NCBI GenBank assembly: GCA_043815815.1
Contig: JBDRIO010000003.1
Coordinates: forward strand, 28,360-92,359
Length of the DNA: 64,000 nucleotides
Origin: Candidatus Eiseniibacteriota bacterium
Lineage (GTDB): Bacteria; Joyebacterota; Joyebacteria; Joyebacterales; Joyebacteraceae
Direction of reading: 5' to 3'
The translations under genes and the position numbers were made by a program. Within the stretch, counting starts at the first letter, position 1. The number at the start of each line of letters is the position of its first letter. The notes below the pieces were generated by a model. It saw only the letters and a program-made list of their open reading frames with translations. It was not told the origin of the DNA and did not search any database. This document shows, in pieces, positions 25,222 through 42,569 of this stretch.

Positions 25222-26091
25222 ATGAGAGTACTGCTAGTGCTGATGCTCGTCATGGCATTCGTCTCGGGAGCCATGGGCGCCAGCTCACGGCTGGGCGGAC
25301 CGGACGTGGGCACGGGTCATCCCGCGCCCGGCTCTCTCCAGGTGCCCGTGGCCGACGTCCTCATCTGCATCGACGTGGACGCGAACTGGGGGCTCTTCGC
25401 CGACCCGACTCCCAAGTACTCCTCCGCGTTCGTCGCGGCGGGAGCCACGGTGATCGCCACGTGCGGCGTCGAGTCGTCCGGAGGGTCGATCAGCTTCCCC
25501 GCGAGCGTCACGGTCGACAACTACCCGCTCGTGGTCGTCCTGACGAGCGAGAACTGGTGGTCGTCGCCGCAGAACATAGACCCCACCGATGAGGCCGTGC
25601 TCGCGAGCTACCTCGACTCCGGCGGCAACCTGCTCTTCGTCGGACAGGACTACATGTACGGAGCGCATACCACGATGGGAACGTGCTCCGGCTTCCCGCG
25701 CGACTACCTCGGAATGGACATCTGCTATCAGGAAGTGACGTACGGCCCCATCACCGCGACGGTGTCCGGCTCCACGGGCTGGATCTTCGACGGCGAGTCG
25801 GTCGTCCTCGACTCGGCCAACGTCTTCATGAACAACCCCTTCTTCCCGGATTGCGCCGACCCCGTCGCGACGACGGCGGGATACGGTCTCTACTACGACG
25901 AGGCCGGTCAGGACGGCGTCCTCATCTACAACGAGACCGAGGTGTTCAAGACGGTGTGGGCCGGGATCGAACTTGCCGGGGCGTCCACGGACGACTTCAA
26001 CATGATGATCGAACTCCTCTACGACTGGTTCCTGGGGATCACGCCCGTCGAGGAGACCTCCTGGGGGCACATCAAGGCCCTGTACAGGTAG
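25222..26091 (+). CDS. Secreted hypothetical protein with the C-terminal tag
   Basis: 289 aa with the signal peptide MRVLLVLMLVMAFVSGAMGA. The tail is ...PVEETSWGHIKALYR*. Confidence 0.75.
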   Translation: MRVLLVLMLVMAFVSGAMGASSRLGGPDVGTGHPAPGSLQVPVADVLICIDVDANWGLFADPTPKYSSAFVAAGATVIATCGVESSGGSISFPASVTVDNYPLVVVLTSENWWSSPQNIDPTDEAVLASYLDSGGNLLFVGQDYMYGAHTTMGTCSGFPRDYLGMDICYQEVTYGPITATVSGSTGWIFDGESVVLDSANVFMNNPFFPDCADPVATTAGYGLYYDEAGQDGVLIYNETEVFKTVWAGIELAGASTDDFNMMIELLYDWFLGITPVEETSWGHIKALYR

Positions 26092-27170: not shown

Positions 27171-27199
27171 TTGACTACTGAGAGAAACTGCGGTATAAT
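27171..27199 (+). promoter_or_regulatory. Sigma70-type promoter of the C25 peptidase gene
   Basis: TTGACT (27171..27176), a 17-nt spacer, then TATAAT (27194..27199). Confidence 0.65.
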
Positions 27200-27281
27200 G
27201 AAGGGGACGGCTGAGTTGCGCCGTTCGCTGCGTCCACGCTGTCCAGCGCTTCCCGTACCTCACATCGAGGAGGACGATACC

Positions 27282-30200
27282 ATCAGACGCCACGAGAGAC
27301 GACACCTGACAGCCGCGGTCGTGACGGCCGCCGCCATCTTCGCGCTCGTAGCTCTTCCAGAAGTGCTGCCCGCCTACGAGGGCGCCGGGGCCGCCGACCC
27401 TGCCCCGCCCGCGCTCGAGTCATCGGTTCGGGTGGTCGAGCAGGCGGGCGACCGGCTCGTCGTGAGATTCACCGCCGAGTCGTCGGGCAGGTGGAACCTC
27501 GCCTCGCCGGATGGCCCCGAGCCCCTTGAGCTGGCGGCCTACGGGAGCGCCGGGTCCGGCCGGACCGGGGGCCTCACCGACATCTGGCGCGCCTCGTCGC
27601 GCGCTCCGGCGTCGTTCTCCGTCATGCTGCAGGTGCCGGACCGTGGACCCGTCGAGTTCGACGTGGTCGCGTCGAACCTGAGCGGCGGACTCGCGGAAGG
27701 CTCCATCGAGATGTCCGAACCGTCAGTCATCAGGGACATACGGGTGGTGACGGTGACCTTCACGCCGCCTCTCGACGGACCGGGGCAGGCGTGCTCGCTC
27801 GACCTGGCGATCACGGCCGGGGCGGGCCGAGGCGCGAACGAGAAGACGAGACACCTCCCCTACCTGTCGCCCGCGTTCCGGAGGCTCTACGAGAGCACGA
27901 CGCTGAACTACCGTCCCGACGCGGAGGGCCCGCCGACTGTGAGCTTCCGCGATCCAGCGCCGGACGGGGCACGCTATCTCATCATCACCGCGAACGCTTA
28001 CGAGTCGGAGATCATGCCGCTCGCGGAGTGGAAGCACGCGAAGGGGCTCCTGACGAAGGTCGTCAATCTCAGCACCGTCGGTTCGACGACGACCGACATA
28101 AAGAACTACATCCAGAACGCGTACGACACGTGGACCGTACCACCCGAGTTCGTGCTGCTGGTCGGCGACACCGAGCAGCTCCCGACCAACATGGTCCAGC
28201 ATCCGATCCTCGAGGTCTACACCGACAACCCCTATTCGATGCTCGAGGGTTCGGACGTCTTCTCAGACGTCTTCATCGGGCGTATCTCGGCCGACTCCGA
28301 CTCCCACGTTAACACGCAGGTCGCCAAGATCCTCGGCTACGAGCGGACGCCCGTGACCGGGGACCCCGACTGGCCGCTCTCCGCGTCGCTCCTCATCGCC
28401 GACGACCACGACTCGGGAGACTGGGTCTACTACGACAACACGTGGCACATCTACGACCTCATGGAGAGCGCCTCGTTCGCGACCATCGACACGCTTTTCC
28501 ACAAGAACGACGTCACGCGGACTCAGGTCTACAACTCGGTGAACAACGGAGCCGGGTTCATCAACTTCCGCGGGCAGGCCTGGTACGACTGGCCGTATCC
28601 GTTCGACCTCGACACGGGCAGCGTCACTACGGGCTGGCGCCTGCCGGTCGTCGTTTCGGCGACGTGCTACACCGGCTACTACGCGAACGACTCCTTCATG
28701 TGCGAGGACTGGGTGCGCGCGGGCACGCCCACGTCGCCCAAGGGAGGCGTCGCCTTCTTCGCGACGGGAACGGCCTACCCGGGCGAGCTCGAGCTGGCGC
28801 TGAGGCGAGGCTACGTTGACGAGGGCTTCTTCTCGAACGTCTTCAGCCAGAGCGGCCTGACGCTCGGCGAGGCGTGCGTGGCCGGCAAGAACAACATGTA
28901 CAAGCTCACGACCGAGGAGGAGGAATACGACGGCTGGAACCTCCTGGGCGACCCCGGGATGGACCTCTGGTCCGGACCGATGCGGACGCTCACGGTGTCG
29001 CACGACCAGGCCGTCCCTCCTGGACACAGCGACTTCGCCGTCACGGTCACGAACGGTCGAGCGTACGTGGAGGGGGCGCTCGTCGCCTGCGTCAAGGGGG
29101 ACGAGACCTACTCGTGGGGCTACACCGATGCGCTCGGTGAGGTGACGCTGTCGGTCGACCCGACGACGCAGGGAACGGGCACTGTGACGGCGACGGCGAA
29201 GAACGCCGTCCCCTACGAGGGAACGCTCGAGGTCGTGACCGGACCGTACCCGACCCTCGAGGCTCTCACGCTGGACGACTCGACGGGCGGGAACGGCGAC
29301 GGCCACCTGAGTCCGGGCGAAACGGCGATCCTCGGCACGGCGCTCACGAACATCGGCGACGCGACGGCGACAGCGGTGCAGGCGACGTGGAGAACGCAGG
29401 ACCCGTACGTGACCGTGCTGGACAGCACGTCGTCGTACGCGGACATACCTCCGGACTCCGTGCGTTGGGCGTCGGGCAGCTTCGAGATCTCGCTGTCACC
29501 GACGTGTCCTTCAGGACACCGCCTGCACTACACGCTCCACGTGAGCTACAACGGCACGGACAACACCCTCGCGCCGCCGCCGATGACGGTCGAGACCGGA
29601 CATCTCACCGACTCGTCGGTCGTCGTGGACGACGCGGCGCCCGGTGGAGACGGAAGCGGCACGTTGTCTCCCGGTGAGACCGTCGGACTCTGGGTGTCCC
29701 TGTCGAACGACGGCCCGTGCGACCTGGCAGGCGTGAGCGCCGTCCTCACCACGGCCGATCCGAACGTGGTCGTCACGTCCTCCAGCGCCTCGTTCGGCGA
29801 CGCGCCGTCGGGTGGCGCCGCCGACAACGCGGCGAGCCCCTACGTGCTGACCGTGTCACCCAGCGCGTCGGGCGGCCACGTCGTCACGCTGTCGCTGGAC
29901 GTGACCGCGGACGGCGGGCACTACACGTACTCCGACACGCTCGAGCTTGCCTTCGAGCTCACGGGCGGCGCAACGATGCTGCCGACGGGCCCCGACGCCT
30001 ACGGCTACTACGTCTACGACCAGACGGACGGGCTCTTCGGACCGGCGCCCACGTACGACTGGGTCGACATCTCCCCCCCGGGACCGGGCACGCTCATCGC
30101 CGAGGTCACCGACGCGGACGCCGGCGTTACGACGTTCAGCATTCTATGGAACTTCCAGTACTACGGGGACACCTACAACCAGCTCTCGGTGAACTCGAAC

Positions 30201-31319
30201 GGCTTCTTCGCGCTCGGCTGGACCGACTACCGGCTCGGCGACAACTCGGCGATCCCGAGCGCTCACGGGCCGCAGAACATGCTCGCCCCGTTCTGGGACG
30301 ACCTCGACCCGTCCGCGGGCGGAGACGTCTACAAGTGGTTCGACTCCGTCGACCACAGATGGGTGTTCCAGTTCGACAACGTGCGTCATTGGGGAATGCC
30401 CTTCGAAGAGACGTTCCAGGTGATCCTGCTGCACCCGACCTACTACCCGACCGCGTCAGGCGACGGGCAGATCATCATCCAGTACGAAGAGGTGTCGCTG
30501 GTCGACGGCTGCACGATCGGGTTTGAGAACATCACGCAGGACGACGGCATCCAGTGCCTCTACGACGGTGCGTACGACCCGCAGATCGCGCCCATCGGCC
30601 CGGGGTCGGCGCTCCTCATAACGACCACTCCCCCGACGGGCGGCGGGCTCCCGTGGCTCGTCCTGGGCGACGTGACCGTCGACGACTCCACCTACGGGAA
30701 CGGGAACGGCCGGGCCGAGCCGGGCGAGACCGTGGCCCTGTCGTTGGAGCTGACGAACCAGGGAGGCCTCGCGGTGGAGGGCGTCTCGCTCACGCTCTCG
30801 TCGCCGGACGGGCTGGCCGCCATCTCGGACAGCACGGGCACGATGGCCGACCTCCCACCCAGCGGGACGGCCGACAACGCGGGAGATCCGTTCGTCCTCA
30901 CGGTCTCGGAGGCCGTGTCAGACACGGTGGCGACGCTCTGGACGACCATCGACGCCAACGGGGGCGACTACGACGGGGCTCAGAGGATCGAGCTGCACAT
31001 AGACCTCACGGGCACGTCCGTGACCGAGGGAGGCCTTCCCTCGGTGTTCAGGTTCCACCCGTGCCACCCGAACCCGTTCACGTCGGGGACGGCCATGCGC
31101 CTCGCGCTTCCGGAGCGGGCTCACGCGTCCGTCAGGATCTACAATGTGTCGGGGCGCCTCGTGAGGACGCTGATCGACGAGCCGCTCGAGGGAGGCGAAC
31201 GTAAGCTCGAGTGGGACGGAAGAAACGACGAGGGGCTGCGGTGTGCGTCCGGCGTCTATCTTGTGAGGGTCGAGGCCGGCGGCAGCGCTGCGACGAGGAA
31301 GGCCGTGCTGCTCAGGTAG
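27282..31319 (+). CDS. Peptidase C25 (gingipain-like) family protein with a T9SS-type C-terminal sorting domain; the start is uncertain
   Basis: The C25 block is YLIITANAYESEIMPLAEWKHAKGLLTKVV...PEFVLLVGDTEQLPT. The CTD is ...HPNPFTSGTAMRLALPERAHASVRIYNVSGRLVRTL...GVYLVRVEAGGSAATRKAVLLR*. In-frame start candidates are TTG 27216, ATC 27282 (6 nt after GAGGAGGA) and GTG 27321. Confidence 0.85.
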   Translation: MRRHERRHLTAAVVTAAAIFALVALPEVLPAYEGAGAADPAPPALESSVRVVEQAGDRLVVRFTAESSGRWNLASPDGPEPLELAAYGSAGSGRTGGLTDIWRASSRAPASFSVMLQVPDRGPVEFDVVASNLSGGLAEGSIEMSEPSVIRDIRVVTVTFTPPLDGPGQACSLDLAITAGAGRGANEKTRHLPYLSPAFRRLYESTTLNYRPDAEGPPTVSFRDPAPDGARYLIITANAYESEIMPLAEWKHAKGLLTKVVNLSTVGSTTTDIKNYIQNAYDTWTVPPEFVLLVGDTEQLPTNMVQHPILEVYTDNPYSMLEGSDVFSDVFIGRISADSDSHVNTQVAKILGYERTPVTGDPDWPLSASLLIADDHDSGDWVYYDNTWHIYDLMESASFATIDTLFHKNDVTRTQVYNSVNNGAGFINFRGQAWYDWPYPFDLDTGSVTTGWRLPVVVSATCYTGYYANDSFMCEDWVRAGTPTSPKGGVAFFATGTAYPGELELALRRGYVDEGFFSNVFSQSGLTLGEACVAGKNNMYKLTTEEEEYDGWNLLGDPGMDLWSGPMRTLTVSHDQAVPPGHSDFAVTVTNGRAYVEGALVACVKGDETYSWGYTDALGEVTLSVDPTTQGTGTVTATAKNAVPYEGTLEVVTGPYPTLEALTLDDSTGGNGDGHLSPGETAILGTALTNIGDATATAVQATWRTQDPYVTVLDSTSSYADIPPDSVRWASGSFEISLSPTCPSGHRLHYTLHVSYNGTDNTLAPPPMTVETGHLTDSSVVVDDAAPGGDGSGTLSPGETVGLWVSLSNDGPCDLAGVSAVLTTADPNVVVTSSSASFGDAPSGGAADNAASPYVLTVSPSASGGHVVTLSLDVTADGGHYTYSDTLELAFELTGGATMLPTGPDAYGYYVYDQTDGLFGPAPTYDWVDISPPGPGTLIAEVTDADAGVTTFSILWNFQYYGDTYNQLSVNSNGFFALGWTDYRLGDNSAIPSAHGPQNMLAPFWDDLDPSAGGDVYKWFDSVDHRWVFQFDNVRHWGMPFEETFQVILLHPTYYPTASGDGQIIIQYEEVSLVDGCTIGFENITQDDGIQCLYDGAYDPQIAPIGPGSALLITTTPPTGGGLPWLVLGDVTVDDSTYGNGNGRAEPGETVALSLELTNQGGLAVEGVSLTLSSPDGLAAISDSTGTMADLPPSGTADNAGDPFVLTVSEAVSDTVATLWTTIDANGGDYDGAQRIELHIDLTGTSVTEGGLPSVFRFHPCHPNPFTSGTAMRLALPERAHASVRIYNVSGRLVRTLIDEPLEGGERKLEWDGRNDEGLRCASGVYLVRVEAGGSAATRKAVLLR

Positions 31320-31538: not shown

Positions 31539-32351
31539 CTACTGATAGAGAGCCTTTATCGCCGTCCAGGTCTCTTCCTCCACGGTCGTGATCTCGGTGG
31601 CTTCCATCTCCACCATGATCGAGCCGTAGTTGTTGCCGATGTCGGCGTAGCTCTGGTCGACGAGGAACATGTAGATCCACGACGTGGCGTGCATCTCGAA
31701 CGTGAACTCCTGTCCGTACTCGAGTTCGAGAATGATCGGGTGGAGCGGTCGGTTGCGGTCGCGGGTAAAGACGAAGACGCCCTCGTAACCGCCCGACGGC
31801 ATCCCGTTGGTCGCCGCGTCACCCCACGCTATCGAGAGCGCGCACAGATAGTCGGGCGGGACGTCCACGTTCTTGATCGAACCGAAGTCCTCGAGTCCGA
31901 GGCAGTTGAACACCGCGTCGACCACCAGCGTCTCGCGTGACTTGTCGCCACCGGTGAACGTGAGCGTCAAGAACCCGGAGTTGTCCGGCACGTCCTTGAG
32001 ACCCTTGTCGACCAGGAACGCGTAGAAATCGATGCTGCTCGCCACGAACGAGTGGACCGCGCCCTTCTCGAGGTACTTCGTGACCGGATGGTCCACGTCG
32101 CCGTTGTCGTAGTAGAAGATGAACAGGCCATCGAAGAACGAGTCGGGGTCCGGGTTCGCCTTGGCGTTGCCGTCGACGCTGACGTCGTAGGCCGTGCCCG
32201 GAGTGAGCGAGATGTGCGCCCCGCCGGCCTGGAAGAGGCCTATGCAGTTCTTGACCGCATTGACTTCCTGCTGCAGCTGGCCGAACGCTGCGGACGACGC
32301 GATCAGGACTATCGCCAGTACTGCCAGCCAGTACCTGTTTGCCATGGGCAC
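31539..32351 (-). CDS. Secreted two-domain hypothetical protein with a variant of the C-terminal tag
   Basis: 270 aa with the signal peptide MPMANRYWLAVLAIVLIASSAAFG. It has an internal duplication (FYAFLVDKG... / IYMFLVDQS...). The tail is ...TVEEETWTAIKALYQ*. Confidence 0.75.
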   Translation of the reverse strand: MPMANRYWLAVLAIVLIASSAAFGQLQQEVNAVKNCIGLFQAGGAHISLTPGTAYDVSVDGNAKANPDPDSFFDGLFIFYYDNGDVDHPVTKYLEKGAVHSFVASSIDFYAFLVDKGLKDVPDNSGFLTLTFTGGDKSRETLVVDAVFNCLGLEDFGSIKNVDVPPDYLCALSIAWGDAATNGMPSGGYEGVFVFTRDRNRPLHPIILELEYGQEFTFEMHATSWIYMFLVDQSYADIGNNYGSIMVEMEATEITTVEEETWTAIKALYQ

Positions 32352-32434: not shown

Positions 32435-32463
32435 AGCATACCACACATCTTGCTGTCCGTCAA
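32435..32463 (-). promoter_or_regulatory. Sigma70-type promoter
   Basis: The minus strand reads TTGACG (32463..32458), a 17-nt spacer, then TATGCT (32440..32435). Confidence 0.55.
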
Positions 32464-32484: not shown

Positions 32485-33510
32485 TCAGCGGACCTTGACG
32501 ACCCTGGCGCGGGCCGTCCCGCCGCGCTCCGCGACGAGCCTCGCGAAGTAGATGCCGGGTGCGCAGTCGTTCCCGTCGGTGTCCCTGCCGTTCCAGACGA
32601 CCTCGTGCTCGCCTCCGCCCATCACGCGGTCCGCGAGAACGGCGACGCGGCGTCCGGCCACGTCGAAGAGCTCAAGGGAAGCGTGGGACGGCGAGGGCAG
32701 CACGAACGAGAGCCGCGTGCCCGCGCTGAACGGATTCGGCGAGGGAGGAAGGAGCGAGAGCCCCGACACGTCATCGAACTCGGGGACGTCCGCCGACATC
32801 GCTCCCAGGAAGGCCGCCTGCAGAACCTTGTTCTTGATGGAGAGGTCGCCGTAGGGCTGCGGGCTCGGGTTCGTGCCTCCCGCCTGCTGCACCCAGCACG
32901 CGACGCCCATCTTCGCGTAGTCCCACGAGGGGTCCAGAGCGAAGGCCTTCTGTATGTCGACCTTCTCCCCCGCCCCGAGGGTCAGGGCATCGCCGGACGT
33001 TGACGTCATGTATGCGACGGCGTGGTACGGAAGGTGGGACTGTCCGCCGCCGTACGCCGCCACGTACTCGTCGAGCGTGGCGACCATGCAGAACCGGGCG
33101 TCGGTGACCGCCTGCTCTGCCTCTATGTGAGCCGTGAAGTCACCCACGCCGTTCTCGATGAGCGAGATCGTGAGCGGGGACGATTCGGCCGCGTGCGCCT
33201 GGTAGTCGACCTCGAGCCAGGAGAAGGGCCAGACGTCCGAGACGCCGTTCCCGGCCGCGGTCGGCATGGCGGTGATGTCGTAGTAGTTCGTGCGAGGGGT
33301 CCAGTAGAGGTCCCCGGACGTGTGCTGAACCAGAACGACTTCGTTTCGAGTGTGGGTCTGCTGCCAATCATCGACCGCAACTGCGGCCGCAGGGCAGGAG
33401 CTTCACCACACCGCCGTGAAGTGTTCATACAGAACGGTCCTCGTGGCGCCGCCCGCGGCACCTGCGAGGACGAGAGTGACAAAGGTGAGCACAACGAGAA
33501 GCCTGGACAC
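32485..33510 (-). CDS. Secreted thioredoxin-like (Omp28-related-type N-terminal motif) protein with a T9SS C-terminal domain; one in-frame TGA (33405..33403) in a W-[TGA]-S-S-C-P motif
   Basis: The track lists only 32485..33267. The same frame is open up to GTG 33510 (GGAGG 5 nt upstream) apart from one TGA. It reads MSRLLVVLTFVTLVLAGAAGGATRTVLYEHFTAVW-[TGA]-SSCPAAAVAVDDWQQTHTRNEVVLVQHTSGDLYWTPRTNYYDITAMPTAAGNG.... The CTD is ...PSPNPFSAGTRLSFVLPSPSHASLELFDVAGRRVAVL...GIYFARLVAERGGTARARVVKVR*. Confidence 0.65.
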
Positions 33511-33631
33511 GGCCGCCTCCCTTCGCTCCGCTAGCTCTTCGCGCTGACATTACTGATCACCGCTACGCGCTGCAGAGTGATTGGGCAGCGTGTCTCAGGA
33601 TCTGAGAGTGGGTCTGATCGAACCCACCGGT

Positions 33632-33660
33632 AGTTTAGCACACGCGAGGCCGCAGGTCAA
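33632..33660 (-). promoter_or_regulatory. Sigma70-type promoter of the thioredoxin-like gene
   Basis: The minus strand reads TTGACC (33660..33655), a 17-nt spacer, then TAAACT (33637..33632). This independently supports the upstream-extended gene model. Confidence 0.6.
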
Positions 33661-33858: not shown

Positions 33859-34854
33859 ATGGAGTTCGACCCTGAGATGCTCGTGAGACCGCGTCCGCGA
33901 ATCCCGACGCTGTCCTCGCTGGGGTCCAAGGGCCCGCGCTGGATAGGCCTCGGGCTCGTGGCGCTCATCTTCCTCACGACGACGTTCTACTCGGTCGCCA
34001 CCGACGAGGTGGGAGTCGTCAAGCGGCTGGGGATCTACGTCAGGACCGCGCAACCCGGGCTGCACCTGAAGCTGCCCTTCGCGTTCGAGAAGGTCCACAA
34101 GGTCCGCGTCAAGCACGTCTTCAAGGAGGAGTTCGGCTTCGCGACCGAGCGTCCGGGCGTGCGGACGGTCTACAGACGCGGCGACTACACCGGCGAGTCG
34201 CTCATGCTGACGGGCGACTTGAACTCCGCGGTGGTCGAGTGGATCGTGCAGTACCGGGTGGAGGACCCGGTCCAGTTCCTCTTCCAGGTCCGGGGCGTTC
34301 CGGAGACGATCCGGGACGTGGCGGAGTCCGCCATGCGGAGCATCGTCGGTGACCGCAGCGTCACCGAGGTGCTCACGATCGGACGCCGCGAGGTGGCCGC
34401 CGAAGTGCAGCTCCTGATGCAGCAGGTGCTCGACGAGTACGGCACCGGGGTCGAGATCGTGACGGTGAACCTGAAGGACGTCAACCCGCCGGACCCGGTC
34501 AAACCGTCCTTCAACGAGGTCAACGAAGCGAAGCAGGAACGCGAGACGCTCATCAACGAGGCCTGGTCCGAATACAACAGCGCCATTCCGGCAGCGGAGG
34601 GCGAGGCTCAGAGAGTCATACGCGACGCGGAGGGCTACGCGCTCGCCCGCGTGAACATAGCGGAGGGCGACGCGGAGCGCTTCCTGGCCGTGTGGAGGGA
34701 GTACTCGCGCGCCAAGGACGTCACCAGGCGGCGCCTCTATCTGGAGACGATGAGCAAGATACTGCCTGAGATAGAGAAGAAGTTCATCATCGACCCCGAG
34801 CTCAAGAACCTCATCCCGCTGCTCCAGCTCGACGGGAAGGGAGGCCAGGGATGA
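33859..34854 (+). CDS. hflK: SPFH/band-7 protein HflK
   Basis: 331 aa with an N-terminal TM segment. It has the SPFH core (VDEVGVVKRLGIYVRTAQPGLHLKLPF) and is followed by an overlapping hflC. Confidence 0.85.
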   Translation: MEFDPEMLVRPRPRIPTLSSLGSKGPRWIGLGLVALIFLTTTFYSVATDEVGVVKRLGIYVRTAQPGLHLKLPFAFEKVHKVRVKHVFKEEFGFATERPGVRTVYRRGDYTGESLMLTGDLNSAVVEWIVQYRVEDPVQFLFQVRGVPETIRDVAESAMRSIVGDRSVTEVLTIGRREVAAEVQLLMQQVLDEYGTGVEIVTVNLKDVNPPDPVKPSFNEVNEAKQERETLINEAWSEYNSAIPAAEGEAQRVIRDAEGYALARVNIAEGDAERFLAVWREYSRAKDVTRRRLYLETMSKILPEIEKKFIIDPELKNLIPLLQLDGKGGQG

Positions 34855-35792
34855 ACGCTCGCGTGGTAGTCACCGCAGCGGTCGTGGTCGTTCTCGGCCT
34901 CATCGTGTTCTCGAACTCGCTGTACGTCATCGACATGACCGAGCAGGTCGTGGTCACTCAGTTCGGAAGGCCTATAGGGGACCCGATAAGGGAGCCGGGC
35001 CTTCGCGTGAAGATACCGTTCATCCAGAAGGTCAACACGTTCGACAAGCGCGTGCTCGAGTGGGACGGGAGCCCCGACCAGATACCGACCAAGGACAAGA
35101 AGTACATCTGGGTCGACACCTTCGCCCGCTGGAGGATCGCCGACCCCCTCAAGTTCATGCAGTCGGTCTCGAGCGAGATGAGCGCGCACGCAAGACTTGA
35201 CGACGTGATCGACGCGGTAACGCGCGACCTCATAACGGGGAACGAGCTCATCGAGGTGGTGCGGAACTCGAACCGTGAGATGGCGGCTTCCGACACGAAC
35301 GTCGTCGCGTCGACGGAGGTCGAGGAGCTCATCGAGGTCGGCCGCACGGCCATCACCCGCGAGATCCTGGCGAGAGCCGCGGAACAGATGCCGCGATACG
35401 GCATCGAGCTGGTCGACGTCGAGATCAAGAGGGTGAACTACGTCGAGGAGGTCAGGCGCAAGGTCTACGAGCGCATGATCTCGGAGCGCCAGAGGATCGC
35501 GGAGCGGTACCGCTCGGAGGGACAGGGTCAGAGCGCGGAGATCCGAGGCCAGAAGGAGAAGGAGCTTCACCGCATCACGTCGGAGGCCTATCGTATCGCG
35601 GAGGAGATCCGGGGGGACGCGGACGCCGAGGCTGCGAGGATCTACGCCGAGGCGTTCGGCCGCGACCCGGAGTTCTACACGTTCCTGCGCACCCTCGAGA
35701 GCTACGGCGAGACGATCGATAAGGAGACGTCGCTCATCCTGACCACGGAGAGCGAGTACTTCAGGCTGCTCAAGGACTCGTCCGGAAGGTGA
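34851..35792 (+). CDS. hflC: SPFH/band-7 protein HflC
   Basis: 313 aa with the TEQVVVTQFGRPIGDPIREPGLRVKIPFIQKV motif. It overlaps hflK by 4 nt. Confidence 0.85.
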   Translation: MNARVVVTAAVVVVLGLIVFSNSLYVIDMTEQVVVTQFGRPIGDPIREPGLRVKIPFIQKVNTFDKRVLEWDGSPDQIPTKDKKYIWVDTFARWRIADPLKFMQSVSSEMSAHARLDDVIDAVTRDLITGNELIEVVRNSNREMAASDTNVVASTEVEELIEVGRTAITREILARAAEQMPRYGIELVDVEIKRVNYVEEVRRKVYERMISERQRIAERYRSEGQGQSAEIRGQKEKELHRITSEAYRIAEEIRGDADAEAARIYAEAFGRDPEFYTFLRTLESYGETIDKETSLILTTESEYFRLLKDSSGR

Positions 35793-37961: not shown

Positions 37962-38151
37962 CGTCTCCCCCTCTCGTCCCCTTCCGGACGGGCCGGACAC
38001 TGCGTCCGGCCTCCTGTCCAACGGACGTACGGGAAGCCCGATCTCTTCCCAGAGGAGAGGGGCCGAAGCGATGCTCCGGCCCCTCTCGTCATCATGCACG
38101 CGCTTCGCCAGCGTCCGCGCGTCGGCGTCGATCCAGACGCCGACCCCGGTG

Positions 38152-39504
38152 CTACTCGAGGTCGACCCAATCTCCGAGGTCTTCGGGGTCGACCCTCGTG
38201 ACCTCGAACAGCGTCGCGATGAGCGAGCCGTCCTTGCCGGCGCGCTCCTGGCTCACGAACTCCCACACGATGCGGCCGTCGGGCGCTACCTCGAAGGCGC
38301 GTCCGTAGTCGGACTCGGTGACGAGCGTGTTGCCGTTCTCGAGCCTATAGCTCGCGCCGCACATCTGGCTGTAGAAGGGCTCGCTGTCCTTGCCGTAGTA
38401 GCTCCACGCGACTTCGAACGTCAGGGGGTCGAACTCGACGACCTTCGACTGACCGCCGTATCCCTTGTTGTCGAAGAGCAGCATGTTGCCGTTGGGAAGC
38501 ATCTTCGGGTCGTGCTGTTGCCTCCACATGCCGGACGCTATCCATGCGACCTGCTCGTATTCCATGTCGACGATCGCGATGAGGTTGAGCTGCCGCATGG
38601 AGACGAGGACGTTCCCCTTTCTGAACGCGGGGTGCCGGTCCTCGAGCATGCCGTCCAGAACCCGGATCGCATTCGTGTGGAACAGGTCACCGGTCTTGCC
38701 CATGCCGTACACGAATGGCGCGTTCTCGTAGCGCGAGTCCAGGAACGCGGCCAGGACCGACACGCTCCTGAGCTCATTGCCGTTCGCGTCGAGGATCGTG
38801 ATGAAGTCCTCGAGCACGGGCTGCACGGTGTTGACGCTCGGGACGATGTGAGCCTTCCTCGTGAGGACGTAGATCCGCCCGTCGTCCATGGCGTGGAGCG
38901 CGTGATGCTCGCTTCCCGCGTGGGCCCACAGAAGCCTCGAGTCCTTGTCGACCTTGATGAGCCCCAGACCCTCGAAGATGGCCAGCACGTCTCCGTTCTC
39001 GAAGAGCTTCGCGTATCGCCAGTACTCGGCTCCGTCGTTCTTGGACGCCGCGAGCGAGTCGGGAAACGCCTTGAGAAACGGGAACTCCCACTCGTGCAGG
39101 ATGTCCCCGTCCATCGTCATGAGAGCGGCGCCCGCGTGGTGCCCCGAGTTGTAGAAGTTGAGTCCGGGCTGCGCCGAGTCCATGTCGTAGACCGTGATGC
39201 CGGTCGCCTCCGGCGCGGGGTTCGTTCCGCTCAGATACCCGATGGACCGGAGGCGCTCCACCTCCGCTCGCTGCGCGGCCGTCATCCCGGTGTGACCCAG
39301 GGACGGCCTCGCCCGACGCCACCGTCCCGACGGACCCATGGTGCTGGATCCCGCGGCCGGGTCGTTGTCGAATCTGCGCTGCGAGAGAGAGACGTCCGGC
39401 GTTCCGACGACGAGGACGGCGGCGAGGATCAGCAGCAACCGACCTCCCGACGCCCCGGCGGACCACCTCGGCCGCGAGGTCTGCAACCTGGCACTCTTAG
39501 GCAA
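38152..39504 (-). CDS. Membrane-anchored arylsulfotransferase(ASST)-like beta-propeller protein, paralogue A1
   Basis: TTG start at 39504 (GGAGG 6 nt upstream) with an N-terminal TM segment. Motifs are GRWR, AEVERLRSIGYLSG, YNSGHHAGAALMTMDGDILHEW, EHHALHAMDDGRIYVL, FHTNAIRVLDG, QHDPKMLPNGNMLLFDN and LENGNTLVTESDYGRAFEV. Confidence 0.6.
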   Translation of the reverse strand: MPKSARLQTSRPRWSAGASGGRLLLILAAVLVVGTPDVSLSQRRFDNDPAAGSSTMGPSGRWRRARPSLGHTGMTAAQRAEVERLRSIGYLSGTNPAPEATGITVYDMDSAQPGLNFYNSGHHAGAALMTMDGDILHEWEFPFLKAFPDSLAASKNDGAEYWRYAKLFENGDVLAIFEGLGLIKVDKDSRLLWAHAGSEHHALHAMDDGRIYVLTRKAHIVPSVNTVQPVLEDFITILDANGNELRSVSVLAAFLDSRYENAPFVYGMGKTGDLFHTNAIRVLDGMLEDRHPAFRKGNVLVSMRQLNLIAIVDMEYEQVAWIASGMWRQQHDPKMLPNGNMLLFDNKGYGGQSKVVEFDPLTFEVAWSYYGKDSEPFYSQMCGASYRLENGNTLVTESDYGRAFEVAPDGRIVWEFVSQERAGKDGSLIATLFEVTRVDPEDLGDWVDLE

Positions 39505-39516
39505 ACCCTACCTCCG

Positions 39517-40872
39517 TTATCTGTCGCCCGCGAGCCACCCGGCTCCGAAGTCGAGCGGGAGACGCCTCATCTCGAAGATGGTGGCTATGAGTTCTCCCTC
39601 TCCGCCCGCCCTGGCCGGGTTCAGGTACTCCCACACGACGTCGCCGTCGGGAGTGACCTCGAGAGCCCTGCCGTAGTCGGACTCGGTTATCAGCGTGTTC
39701 CCGTTCGGGAGCCTGCTCGCTGCGCCGCACATGCCCGTGTAGAGCGGGTCGTCGTCCTCGCCCAGATACGCCCACGTGATCCCCTGCGTCGCCGGGTTGA
39801 ACTCGAGCACCTTCGAAAGGCCGGCCTGTCCCTTGTTGTCGAAGAGCATGATGTTCCCGTTCGCGAGCACCTTCGAATCGTGCTGGGCCCTCCACATGCC
39901 CGAGCCGGACCAGATGACGGCCTCGCGCTCCATGTCGATGATCGCGATCATGTCTATCTGCCGCATCGACACCAGCACGTTACCCTTCTCATACGGCGGC
40001 ATGCGCTTCGAGAAGCGGCCGTCCATGACGTCGACGGCATTGGTGTGAAGGAGATCTCCGACTCTGCGCATGCCGTGAACCGTGAGCGCAGTCGAGAAGT
40101 ACGAGTTCTCGAACGCGTCGAGCACCGAGACGCTGCGCAGGACCTTCCCGTTGGAGCTCAGGATCGTGATGAAGTCCTCGAGAACCGGCGCGGTCGAATT
40201 GATCCTGGGAATGAGATGAGCCTTCCGGGTGAGAACGTATATGCGGCCGTCGTCCATGACCTGGAGCGCGTGGTGCTCGCCTCCGGCGTGCGCCCAGATG
40301 AGCCTCGAGTTCCTGTCGACCTTGATGAGCCCCAAGCCCTCGAATATGGCCAGCGCGTCCCCGTTCTCGAAGACGTGGACATATCTCCAGAAGTCCGCGC
40401 TCTCGTTGTTCTCCGCCGCCCTCACCGAGTCCGGGAATGCCCTGAGGAACGGAAACTCCCACTCGTGCAGGACGCGTCCGTCCATAGTCGCGAGGATCGC
40501 GCCCGCGTGATGCCCCGAGTTGTACAGGTTGAGGCCGGGCTGAACGCGGTCGGGGATGTGGACGGTGACGCCGGACCTCCCGGGCGCAGGCGTGGTGCCG
40601 CTCAAGTACCCGATCGAGCGGAGCCGCTCCACTTCCTCTCTCTGGGCGTCCGACATGACGCTCGACCTGTCAGTGGGCTTGAGCGTTCGCCAGCGCCCCG
40701 TCGGGGCGATCTCGTGGAGCGTCCTCCCGGAGTCCACGCCCTGGCGACTGCTCTGAGCGACCGAGGACGTCTCACCCGCTCCGACCATGCAGAGGATAAG
40801 CACGAGGAACACACCCCGGAAGGCCATTCCCCGCGGCGAACGCGCACACAGGTTGTCGTTGTCGCGACGCAA
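39517..40872 (-). CDS. ASST-like beta-propeller protein, paralogue A2
   Basis: TTG start at 40872 (AGGAGG 5 nt upstream). It has the same motif series as A1 (EEVERLRSIGYLSG ... QHDSKVLANGNIMLFDN). Confidence 0.6.
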   Translation of the reverse strand: MRRDNDNLCARSPRGMAFRGVFLVLILCMVGAGETSSVAQSSRQGVDSGRTLHEIAPTGRWRTLKPTDRSSVMSDAQREEVERLRSIGYLSGTTPAPGRSGVTVHIPDRVQPGLNLYNSGHHAGAILATMDGRVLHEWEFPFLRAFPDSVRAAENNESADFWRYVHVFENGDALAIFEGLGLIKVDRNSRLIWAHAGGEHHALQVMDDGRIYVLTRKAHLIPRINSTAPVLEDFITILSSNGKVLRSVSVLDAFENSYFSTALTVHGMRRVGDLLHTNAVDVMDGRFSKRMPPYEKGNVLVSMRQIDMIAIIDMEREAVIWSGSGMWRAQHDSKVLANGNIMLFDNKGQAGLSKVLEFNPATQGITWAYLGEDDDPLYTGMCGAASRLPNGNTLITESDYGRALEVTPDGDVVWEYLNPARAGGEGELIATIFEMRRLPLDFGAGWLAGDR

Positions 40873-40884
40873 ACGCTGCCTCCT

Positions 40885-42198
40885 CTACTCGTCGACGGCG
40901 AGCCAGTCGAGAGGGAAGTCGGCGGGCAGTCTCGTCATTTCGAAGATGGTGGCGATGAACCTGCCGTCCTCGCCGGCGCGCTCGGGGTTCAGGTACTCCC
41001 AAACGATCGAGCCGTCCTGCGTCACCTCTATGGCCCGTCCTCTGTCCGACTCGGTCGCGAGCGTGTTGCCGTTCGGCAACCTCTGCACGGTGCCGCACGT
41101 CAGGGAGAAGAAGAGCGCGGGCACCTCTCCGACGTACGTCCACACGACGTCGCCGCTCCGGGGATCGAACTCGATCAGACGCGACTTCTCCTCGTACCCC
41201 TTGTTGTCGAAGAGAAGCACCGTGCCACCGGGCAACACGGACGGGTCGTGCTGCGAACGCCATTCACCGCGCGTCGCCCACGTGATCTCCCCGATCTCCA
41301 TGTCGAGGATCGCCAACAGATTGGGAATGCGCAGAGACAGGAGGATGCTCCCCTTGCGGAACTCCGGAACGCCGTCGACCATACCGTCCTCGAGCAGGAC
41401 CATCGCGTTCGTGTGGAAGATGTCGCCGTAGATCTGGATCTCGTCCAGCACGTAGGCGTACTCGGAACGCAGGAGTCCGTCGAGGACGGAGAAGCTCAAG
41501 ATCTCGTTGCCGTCCGGGCCGAGCACGACGACGAAGTCCTCCAGGATGGGCGCGCCGGGCCTCACCTTCGTCGACGTCGTGGCGACGCGCGAGAGCGAGT
41601 AGATGCTGCCGTCGTCGGCCACCTGGACCTCGTGATGCTCGCCCCCGAGCCTGGCCCAGAGAACGTTCGAGTCCTTGTCCAGCTTCGCCAGCCCGTAGCC
41701 CTCGAATATCACGAGAACGTCGCCGTTCTCGAAGAGGTACGCCGAGCGCCAGTACTCCGAGTTGTCGTTCAGGTACTCCCCCGCCATCCCGGGCCAGACG
41801 TCGAGGAAACCCGCGGACCACTCGTGCAGAACGTCGCCGTCCATGTCCAGGAGCGCGGCTCCGGGACGGTGACCCGACGAAAAGAAGTTGAGCCCTGCGT
41901 AGACGGCGTCCTTCTCGTGAACGGTGACGCCCATGCGGTTCGGAGCCTCGACCGATCCGGTGAGATATCCGATGGAACGCAGGCGCTCCAACTCCGCGCG
42001 CTGCTCGTCCGTCAGCTCCTCGTCCGACTCGATGTCATCGATCGAGCGCCAGCGGCCGGGGTAGCTCTTCGAGATATGCTCGCCGGCCTTGAAGACGTTG
42101 TCCGCCTCCTCGCCCGCCGCGGGGGCGGGCGGAAGGAGAACAAGGAGCGCGGCAAGCGTGATAAGCAGGTGTGCGCCGGAGCGCATGCGCGACGACAC
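40885..42198 (-). CDS. ASST-like beta-propeller protein, paralogue A3
   Basis: Start trimmed to GTG 42198 (GGAGG 6 nt upstream) or ATG 42186, giving the signal/anchor segment MRSGAHLLITLAALLVLL. It has the same motif series (AELERLRSIGYLTG ... QHDPSVLPGGTVLLFDN). Confidence 0.6.
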   Translation of the reverse strand: MSSRMRSGAHLLITLAALLVLLPPAPAAGEEADNVFKAGEHISKSYPGRWRSIDDIESDEELTDEQRAELERLRSIGYLTGSVEAPNRMGVTVHEKDAVYAGLNFFSSGHRPGAALLDMDGDVLHEWSAGFLDVWPGMAGEYLNDNSEYWRSAYLFENGDVLVIFEGYGLAKLDKDSNVLWARLGGEHHEVQVADDGSIYSLSRVATTSTKVRPGAPILEDFVVVLGPDGNEILSFSVLDGLLRSEYAYVLDEIQIYGDIFHTNAMVLLEDGMVDGVPEFRKGSILLSLRIPNLLAILDMEIGEITWATRGEWRSQHDPSVLPGGTVLLFDNKGYEEKSRLIEFDPRSGDVVWTYVGEVPALFFSLTCGTVQRLPNGNTLATESDRGRAIEVTQDGSIVWEYLNPERAGEDGRFIATIFEMTRLPADFPLDWLAVDE

Positions 42199-42327
42199 TC
42201 GTGACCTCCGTGGGCTTTTGGGAGCGGCCTGCCGGACCCGGGCGTTCTCCCGGACCGACGCCGCCCCGAAGTCGAATGCGGCTTCAGAGAGTGCAACGGG
42301 AGCGGCGCTTACGTCCGCTCCTGTACG

Positions 42328-42356
42328 AATATAGCACGACGGACGAGCGGCTTCAA
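42328..42356 (-). promoter_or_regulatory. Sigma70-type promoter of the A3-A2-A1 triad
   Basis: The minus strand reads TTGAAG (42356..42351), a 17-nt spacer, then TATATT (42333..42328). Confidence 0.6.
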
Positions 42357-42461
42357 CCGACGCGCCCGCAGGGCCCGGAGGGCGGCGCCAATCGACGGCG
42401 CGCAGGGGCCCCGCGCGGGGGCACCCCGACCCGCTCGGCCCGCCCTCTCCGGCCGGGCGAG

Positions 42462-42491
42462 TTGACACCGCATCGCTCCAGGGGATAGCAT
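42462..42491 (+). promoter_or_regulatory. Sigma70-type promoter of the Kelch/ABC operon (divergent from the previous promoter)
   Basis: TTGACA (42462..42467), a 17/18-nt spacer, then ATAGCAT (42485..42491). Confidence 0.5.
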
Positions 42492-42569
42492 GACGCATCT
42501 CAGGCACAATGGAAGACCGCGTTCAGGGACACATCTCGTTCCAGAGTCTCGCTCCAGAGGAGGAGAAAC

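Follow-up and report, generated by a model that had tools for sequence, protein, structure and literature searches.

A conserved in-frame TGA followed by a conserved hairpin points to an exported thioredoxin-like selenoprotein in Candidatus Eiseniibacteriota

Bacterial selenoproteins with a UxxC motif, in which U stands for selenocysteine (Sec), include the family GOS_C, which was described from ocean metagenomes with 74 Sec sequences and 312 Cys homologues, a thioredoxin-like fold and no assigned function (Zhang and Gladyshev 2008, PMC2398784). In a 2026 review of prokaryotic selenoproteomes the model NF045500 goes under the name 'Hypothetical protein GOS_C', and one Sec and the motif UxxC are given for it (Table 1 of PMC13188914). 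A Cys-containing counterpart is found in HBP35 (PG0616/PGN0659) of Porphyromonas gingivalis, a surface-located protein that is secreted through the Por system, or type IX secretion system (T9SS) (PMC2907840, PMC3120885), and in which both C48 and C51 are required for insulin-reducing thioredoxin activity (PMC2907840). Here we describe a gene on the minus strand of a 64,000-nucleotide stretch of DNA from Candidatus Eiseniibacteriota (contig JBDRIO010000003.1, positions 28,360 to 92,359; the whole stretch is called the window below), which probably encodes an exported relative of these proteins with Sec inserted at an in-frame TGA.

The reading frame runs from a GTG at 33510..33508 to a terminal TGA at 32487..32485, i.e. 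342 codons including the stop, and its sole internal stop is the TGA at 33405..33403. The product reads VSRLLVVLTFVTLVLAGAAGGATRTVLYEHFTAVW*SSCPAAAVAVDDW..., where the asterisk marks the TGA, which occupies the position of the first Cys in a W-C-x-x-C-P motif. An earlier reading, made from the letters of the window only (the sequence-only reading), had proposed this frame, and the translation gives the same. It had also remarked that a mechanical list of open reading frames (ORFs) shows just the distal part of the gene; this is equally true of the public annotation, in which a protein from a Candidatus Eisenbacteria metagenome-assembled genome (MAG) is 100% identical to the shortened ORF. The annotated product lacks both the putative signal peptide and the redox motif. 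The Shine-Dalgarno-like sequence reported upstream of the GTG is present, one G longer than had been stated, and the reported promoter was recovered, as a consensus match, by a scan of the region that found two promoter-like sites around the gene against 0.1 expected.

That TGA is an ordinary stop elsewhere in the window, another point of the sequence-only reading, is borne out by the gene ends: TGA is the commonest stop codon and closes 19 of the 36 likely genes, among them hflK, hflC and the predicted selenoprotein gene itself. A reassignment of UGA in the genetic code is ruled out by these 19 genes, and frameshifting at 33405..33403 is ruled out because the same frame is used on both sides. 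When the window was scanned for further in-frame TGAs in UxxC or CxxU motifs and for pairs of a TGA with a hairpin, only the TGA described here was credible.

Orthologous DNA fetched from metagenomes and MAGs gave 37 loci that cover the TGA site, from more than 20 independent assemblies and with 42-69% identity to the query. At the column where the sequence-only reading had suggested looking for Cys codons, TGA is found in all 37 loci and TGC or TGT in none. The matches found with tblastn span query residues 1-341 in one frame, and the part upstream of the TGA, with the putative signal peptide and the pattern (R/K)-x-V-x-Y-E-H-F-T-x-x-(W/Y/T), is kept in that same frame. The orthologues begin with M-(S/T/A)-R at the position equivalent to the GTG of the window, and residue 32 is Thr in 31 of 31 sequences, encoded by all four Thr codons. 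The invariant TGA together with the synonymous variation upstream of it therefore rules out a sequencing error, a pseudogene or a mere leader ORF.

In the protein databases the family appears only in shortened form. The 73 close homologues in a database of 5.8 billion proteins each cover at most 87% of the query, with starts scattered just past the TGA, and in a second homologue search the gene calls were likewise shortened at the N-terminus just after the site (65/65). The gene calls of the orthologues start at four or more different positions, no conserved restart codon was found after the TGA among the orthologues, and the first internal start in the window is the ATG at 33267, 46 codons past the TGA. 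Such scattered starts are the usual output of gene callers at an in-frame stop. A scan of a genome collection with the full protein returned only generic matches to T9SS tails (L001-L032).

A single sequence was at odds with the TGA pattern, the fragment P0132 (136 amino acids), which shares 68% identity with the target over residues 44-105. Its first 66 residues resemble neither the signal peptide nor the redox motif, and a frameshift or a chimera may lie behind it. As to the terminal stop codons, the orthologues (L033-L071) use TAG 19 times, TAA 6 times and TGA twice, whereas 19 of the 36 likely genes of the window, the selenoprotein gene included, end in TGA. The rarity of a terminal TGA among the orthologues may mean that a second UGA is avoided in messages decoded with Sec, or it may come from differences in base composition only.

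Cys does occur at the Sec column in more remote relatives. An exhaustive HMMER search of 1.84 billion representative sequences yielded such proteins with an intact N-terminus, reading YEHFSEDLCLYCP in P0134, FEHFSQEWCLSCP in P0155, GTGTWC(Y/Q)YCPGA in P0137 and P0142, and NASCGPCA in P0138 and P0139. The last four carry T9SS tails and match NF045500 at 47-68 bits. The upstream 35 codons of the window gene share in-frame homology with the N-termini of these full-length Cys relatives, and C48 of HBP35 (FTAEWC48GYC51P) aligns with U36.

A second clade, the group of P0134 and P0155, itself contains a hidden in-frame TGA, at positions 1470-1472 of L072 (FEHFTQDG-TGA-SSCP) and 1474-1476 of L073 (YEHFTQDG-TGA-GACG). 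In both loci the TGA is followed by a hairpin with a GGUC loop at +20. This clade has a lower G+C content, a Pro/Thr-rich linker and a different, non-T9SS C-terminal domain; the public gene calls P0133 and P0131 are shortened, and the sisters P0134 and P0155 have Cys. With both TGA and Cys forms in this clade, the wider family displays the usual mixture of Sec and Cys.

Downstream of the UGA the sequence-only reading had described a nested hairpin, and the minimum free energy (MFE) fold of the 57 nt from the UGA on (-21.1 kcal/mol) holds all its parts: an inner helix, an AGUU loop and an outer helix (CUGCC with GGCAG). Comparison of 34 distinct sequences upholds the inner helix and its loop and discards the outer helix. 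In the inner helix (alignment columns 17-23 paired with 28-34) 90.8% of the cells are paired, and five of the seven pairs show changes on both sides (21 cells). Its covariation score is 0.367 against 0.181+-0.021 in shuffled alignments, with none of 500 shuffles reaching 0.367, and register shifts of one to three columns gave no more than 0.12. In the outer helix only 43.8% of the cells are paired, compensatory changes are absent and RNAalifold dropped it; it is a by-product of the W-Q codons in certain lineages.

Selection on the hairpin is also visible in the coding sequence. In one lineage CCGC/GCGG has become CAUC/GAUG, by which the peptide AAAVAV changed to QASVDV; the pairing was thus kept at a cost to the protein. 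In codons 42-45 (GCC GCA GUU GCG) the fourfold-degenerate third positions have entropies of 0.59, 0.23, 0.21 and 0.00 bits, whereas all other such positions of the gene have at least 0.91 bits. They are fixed on A and U, two bases that this gene otherwise seldom has in third position. Across the orthologues the stem measures 5-8 bp and the tetraloop is AGUU, or GGUC in three sequences. In the hairpin scan the distance from the UGA to the start of the loop is exactly 20 nt both for the window and for 36 of the 37 loci. In the one other locus, L065, the stem is interrupted and the loop is GAGC; folding puts the start of this loop at +20 as well.

These properties agree well with the published model of the bacterial selenocysteine insertion sequence (bSECIS), i.e. 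a loop of 3-9 nt, a stem of at least 4 bp, a G in the first two loop positions that is usually followed by G or U, a UGA-to-loop spacing of 16-37 nt and an MFE of at most -7.5 kcal/mol (PMC13188914). The element of the window has a 7-bp stem, the AGUU loop, a spacing of 20 nt and -12.7 kcal/mol, in line with the resemblance to SECIS elements that had been claimed for it. The model is passed strictly by 29 of the 34 sequences and four others just miss the energy cutoff; all 34 reach -8.0 kcal/mol or lower over 42 nt, with the loop at +20 and a G within loop positions 1-2. Like canonical bacterial SECIS elements (the E. coli fdhF type and the bSECISearch consensus) the hairpin lies within the coding region just past the UGA and has a small apical loop with G and then U in the first positions. 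It differs from these in being very short and uniform (5-8 bp with a tetraloop), in showing no evident conserved lower stem or bulged U, and in matching no Rfam model.

The domain architecture of the predicted protein is supported by homology. The N-termini of all orthologues, read by eye, show a positively charged n-region, a hydrophobic h-region and a c-region with small residues. In the redox motif H30, F31, T32, U/C36, C39 and P40 are invariant among 19 orthologues, and the motif aligns with FTAEWCGYCP of HBP35 and with thioredoxins. The thioredoxin-like part further contains an invariant P83 at the cis-Pro position (M-P-T), and the beta-sandwich part bears the conserved motifs SHLPYH and W-D-Y-x-x-M-G-V-A-x-W. 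A profile of the 19 full-length orthologues, with U entered as C, had as its best match in the PDB the structure 5y1a of P. gingivalis HBP35 (E 3e-6; two colinear stretches, query positions 21-47 and 153-209), followed by many thioredoxins aligned from the CxxC motif to the cis-Pro. The C-terminal domain scores 26.7 bits with TIGR04183 (cutoff 23) and 32 bits with FlgD_ig (PF13860; cutoff 27). Both the thioredoxin/Omp28-like motif interrupted at its first Cys and the T9SS tail, as claimed by the sequence-only reading, are recovered here, and the N-terminus reads as a putative signal peptide.

Matches to described families are otherwise weak. The Omp28 lipoprotein model NF033782 matches the N-termini of 14 of the 19 orthologues at about 30 bits (cutoff 150), NF045500 ('Omp28-related selenoprotein') matches 16 of 19 at 22.7-24 bits (cutoff 200; model positions 34-169 only), and the Pfam family Omp28 (PF11551) gave no match to the window protein at E <= 1. 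The AlphaFold model of residues 37-341 has a pLDDT (per-residue confidence score) of 86.5 and displays a small alpha/beta part, a beta-sandwich and a C-terminal beta-sandwich, the latter confident at model residues 229-303.

A subfamily of about 255 amino acids (L049, L050, L052, L053, L055, L056, L058, L059, L060 and L061) lacks the T9SS-like tail and ends in ...SW(S/G)x(I/V)Kx(L/M)(Y/F)(R/K) directly after a conserved VLQSRWV. Its members have retained the TGA as well as the AGUU hairpin. The family thus seems to have two interchangeable signals for export or anchoring.

By sequence comparison the window family is clearly an uncatalogued relative of the known thioredoxin-fold UxxC selenoproteins, within the Omp28/HBP35 superfamily. 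With GOS_C it shares the status of a predicted bacterial selenoprotein, the thioredoxin-like fold, a single Sec in UxxC, a SECIS-like hairpin and a presumed thiol-based redox function; at about 24 bits against a cutoff of 200 it is a remote relative of NF045500 and not a member. The close clade is moreover Sec-only (37 loci and the window), whereas GOS_C has more Cys homologues than Sec forms (312 versus 74). HBP35 (5y1a) has the order of signal peptide, thioredoxin-like motif, further beta-rich part and T9SS C-terminal domain that is predicted for the window protein, but it contains Cys instead of Sec, shows low overall similarity and comes from a different phylum. Hemin binding has been assayed for HBP35. 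The Omp28 lipoproteins (NF033782; PF11551) have the N-terminal E-x-F-T-x-x-W-C-x-x-C-P thioredoxin-like motif in common with the window protein, but the signal peptide of the latter lacks a lipobox Cys and Sec replaces Cys. The earlier remark that an exported Sec protein with a T9SS tail would be unusual must be toned down, since GOS_C has been catalogued since 2008 and T9SS-tailed Cys relatives are common.

We consider it likely, with a probability of about 0.8, that the gene encodes an exported thioredoxin-like selenoprotein with Sec at the UGA, inserted by means of the SECIS hairpin. The comparison establishes a conserved TGA, a conserved and covarying hairpin, Cys at the same column in relatives and the domain architecture, and the core of the sequence-only reading (a Sec UGA at the first Cys of CxxC, an exported T9SS-tailed protein and a SECIS hairpin) is strongly supported by it. 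Translation would start at the GTG, and the ribosome would pass the UGA without terminating. The hairpin that begins 13 nt past the UGA, with its G+C-rich stem of 5-8 bp and its AGUU cap 20 nt from the UGA, would act as a bacterial SECIS and recruit SelB with Sec-tRNA(Sec), so that Sec is inserted as residue 36; SelA and SelD would then also be expected in the organism. The product would consist of a signal peptide of the Sec secretion pathway, an Omp28/HBP35-like module (W-U-S-S-C-P, cis-Pro M-P-T and a beta-sandwich) and a T9SS type-A-like tail. By analogy with HBP35 of P. gingivalis it might be exported and then displayed at the surface or released. Its role could be that of a selenol/thiol oxidoreductase, or of a redox-linked binder of heme or metal, in which the U36 selenolate would take the part of the attacking N-terminal Cys of CxxC (C48 in HBP35).

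Several observations weigh against this interpretation. Genes for selA, selB and selD were found neither in the window, by an NCBIfam survey of its genes, nor in any of the fetched loci; ARAGORN detected no tRNA of any kind in the window and, in 54 fetched loci, none for Sec. A Cys form was not found in the close clade (at least 40% identity), either in the protein database searches or among the 37 loci, and such an absence is atypical for selenoprotein families. The fold of the single sequence, which has 67% G+C, is not exceptional (z = -1.58; 14 of 200 shuffles were as stable), so that the significance of the hairpin comes only from the comparison of orthologues. Rfam gave no match, either for the whole window at the gathering threshold or for 33300..33460 at E <= 10. 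In a Foldseek search with the whole-chain model, which lacks beta1, 5y1a was absent from the top 50; the output consisted mostly of matches to Ig-like tandem domains at a TM (template modelling) score of about 0.2 and is uninformative on the redox domain. Finally, T9SS is best established in Bacteroidota, and its operation in Eisenbacteria would be deduced from domain similarity and from one nearby C25/PorU-like gene that scores far below the cutoff of its model.

Among the other explanations the one that survives best, although we consider it unlikely, is that the UGA is recoded to a residue other than Sec, for instance Cys delivered by SelB on a tRNA-Cys-like tRNA with a UCA anticodon, or Trp, Cys or Gly through hairpin-stimulated read-through, which would give a full-length protein without selenium. 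tRNA-Cys-like UCA tRNAs exist. In favour of this explanation, the comparison of loci shows that the UGA is recoded and the hairpin conserved but is silent on the residue that is inserted, and no Sec machinery was seen in the 64-kb window or the fetched loci. On the other side, the element agrees with the bSECIS model in every point, the G-U of the apical loop and the spacing among them, and the site is that of the nucleophilic Cys of CxxC, a typical position for Sec. If Cys were to be inserted, a plain TGC or TGT would be simpler, yet it is seen in 0 of 37 loci.

Still less probable, to our judgement, is that the UGA terminates translation, giving a leader peptide of 35 residues and a separate, shorter protein from an internal start, with the hairpin as a coupling or other regulatory structure. 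This is what the public annotations assume, and some orthologues have a GTG or ATG about eight codons past the TGA. The internal start is, however, not conserved (46 codons on in the window, at least four positions in the orthologues), and the downstream product would have a secretion tail but no signal peptide. It would also be without beta1 and the first redox residue, although C39, P40 and P83 of the thioredoxin fold are invariant, and the upstream 35 codons match in frame the N-termini of full-length Cys relatives. The remaining explanation, a nonsense mutation, pseudogene lesion, or sequencing or assembly error in a TGC or TGT codon, would produce the same picture in a single sequence by a one-base change, but is refuted by the comparative data: 37 of 37 loci, which stem from independent metagenomes and MAGs, have TGA, the sequence before and after it is under purifying selection, and TGA recurs in the second clade (L072, L073).

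If Sec is indeed inserted, the gene adds a Sec-only clade to the Omp28/HBP35 superfamily, suggests Sec decoding in Eisenbacteria-like lineages and points to a selenoprotein that acts at the cell surface. The compact and uniform SECIS candidate (stem of 5-8 bp, tetraloop, +20) could sharpen bacterial SECIS models. The general picture remains unchanged: predicted bacterial selenoproteins are already most often UxxC proteins with a thioredoxin fold. Every public copy that was found (more than 70 clusters, the NCBI record of the present contig among them) is annotated as a shortened "FlgD Ig-like" or "T9SS sorting domain" protein. Because these records lack the signal peptide and catalytic motif, selenoproteome surveys cannot see the family, and nothing in the records betrays a redox protein. 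In the literature we found no paper that links Eisenbacteria with selenocysteine or selenoproteins with type IX secretion, and nothing relevant on Omp28 together with selenoproteins. Rather tentatively, one may imagine an obligately Sec-dependent redox family in uncultivated Eisenbacteria that is displayed at the surface by a T9SS-type tail or, in the sister group, by a ...SWGxIKxLYR tag. We know of no reductant that recycles a selenoenzyme outside the cell envelope. If such a family exists, it would imply an unrecognised extracellular selenium chemistry, e.g. in heme or metal capture or in detoxification.

Table 1. Features of the predicted selenoprotein gene and its downstream neighbour (window coordinates)
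Feature	Position	Strand	Description
Predicted selenoprotein coding sequence	32485..33510	-	341 amino acids, U = residue 36; GTG start 33510, terminal TGA 32487..32485
In-frame TGA, candidate Sec codon	33403..33405	-	Residue 36, position one of U-S-S-C-P
Shortened ORF as annotated	32485..33267	-	260 amino acids, P0001, 'FlgD immunoglobulin-like domain containing protein'
Shine-Dalgarno-like GGGAGG	33516..33521	-	5 nt before the GTG start; read from sequence
Sigma-70-like promoter candidate	33632..33660	-	TTGACC-17-TAAACT with TG extension; consensus match only
Putative signal peptide	33445..33510	-	About residues 1-22, cleavage site approximate; MSRLLVVLTFVTLVLAGAAGGA; read from sequence
Thioredoxin-fold beta1 and redox motif	33391..33429	-	Y-E-H-F-T-A-V-W-U-S-S-C-P, residues 28-40; from alignment
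Mature Omp28/HBP35-like module	32776..33444	-	About residues 23-245; thioredoxin-like part, then beta-sandwich
T9SS type-A-like sorting domain	32488..32739	-	Residues 258-341, ends K-V-R; TIGR04183, FlgD_ig
SECIS-type hairpin (candidate)	33372..33389	-	5' arm CGGCCGC 33389..33383, loop AGUU 33382..33379, 3' arm GCGGUCG 33378..33372
Outer helix CUGCC/GGCAG	33361..33397	-	CUGCC 33397..33393 with GGCAG 33365..33361; not a conserved part of the element
Downstream neighbour	31539..32351	-	270 amino acids, hydrophobic N-terminus, ends ...ETWTAIKALYQ; own promoter-like site 32463..32435

The predicted selenoprotein gene is flanked on one side by the divergent hflK-hflC pair (33859..35792) and on the other by the gene for the 270-residue protein of Table 1, followed by a gene for a C25/PorU-like peptidase (27171..31319). 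The genes follow each other in the same way in L069 and L071. The 270-residue protein is syntenic in L069 (11068-11871), L071 (10929-11732) and L054, with lengths of 267-270 residues; it has no match in Pfam or NCBIfam and may, by its conserved position, be a functional partner of the selenoprotein. The C25 peptidase carries a T9SS-like tail and scores 65 bits with the PorU model (cutoff 420), and it is the only candidate for a component of the T9SS machinery (PorK-N, Sov/SprA, PorV, PorU) in the window.

Elsewhere in the window a plus-strand ORF of 1377 amino acids that starts with ATG (38071..42204) overlaps three consecutive ORFs on the minus strand (38152..42507). The latter encode 450-540 amino acids and have a high G+C content at third codon positions, and none of them has a strong NCBIfam match (E <= 1e-40).

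A C-terminal tag, ...(T)PVE-x-x-[ST]-W-[GSTA]-x-[IVL]-K-x-[LM]-[YF]-[RKQH]-stop, recurs in the window, for which no paper mentioning the motif was found in the literature. It closes at least five ORFs, with ends at 26091 (+), 57527 (+), 59071 (+), 31539 (-) and 14046 (-), and had no matches in 20 shuffles of the window. The ORF that ends at 31539 is the 270-residue neighbour of the selenoprotein gene, in which the tag reads ETWTAIKALYQ. The tag has the look of a C-terminal sorting signal not yet described. ORFs in L002, L004, L054, L069 and L071 end in it too, and two of its carriers are Chlamydia-PMP-repeat proteins.

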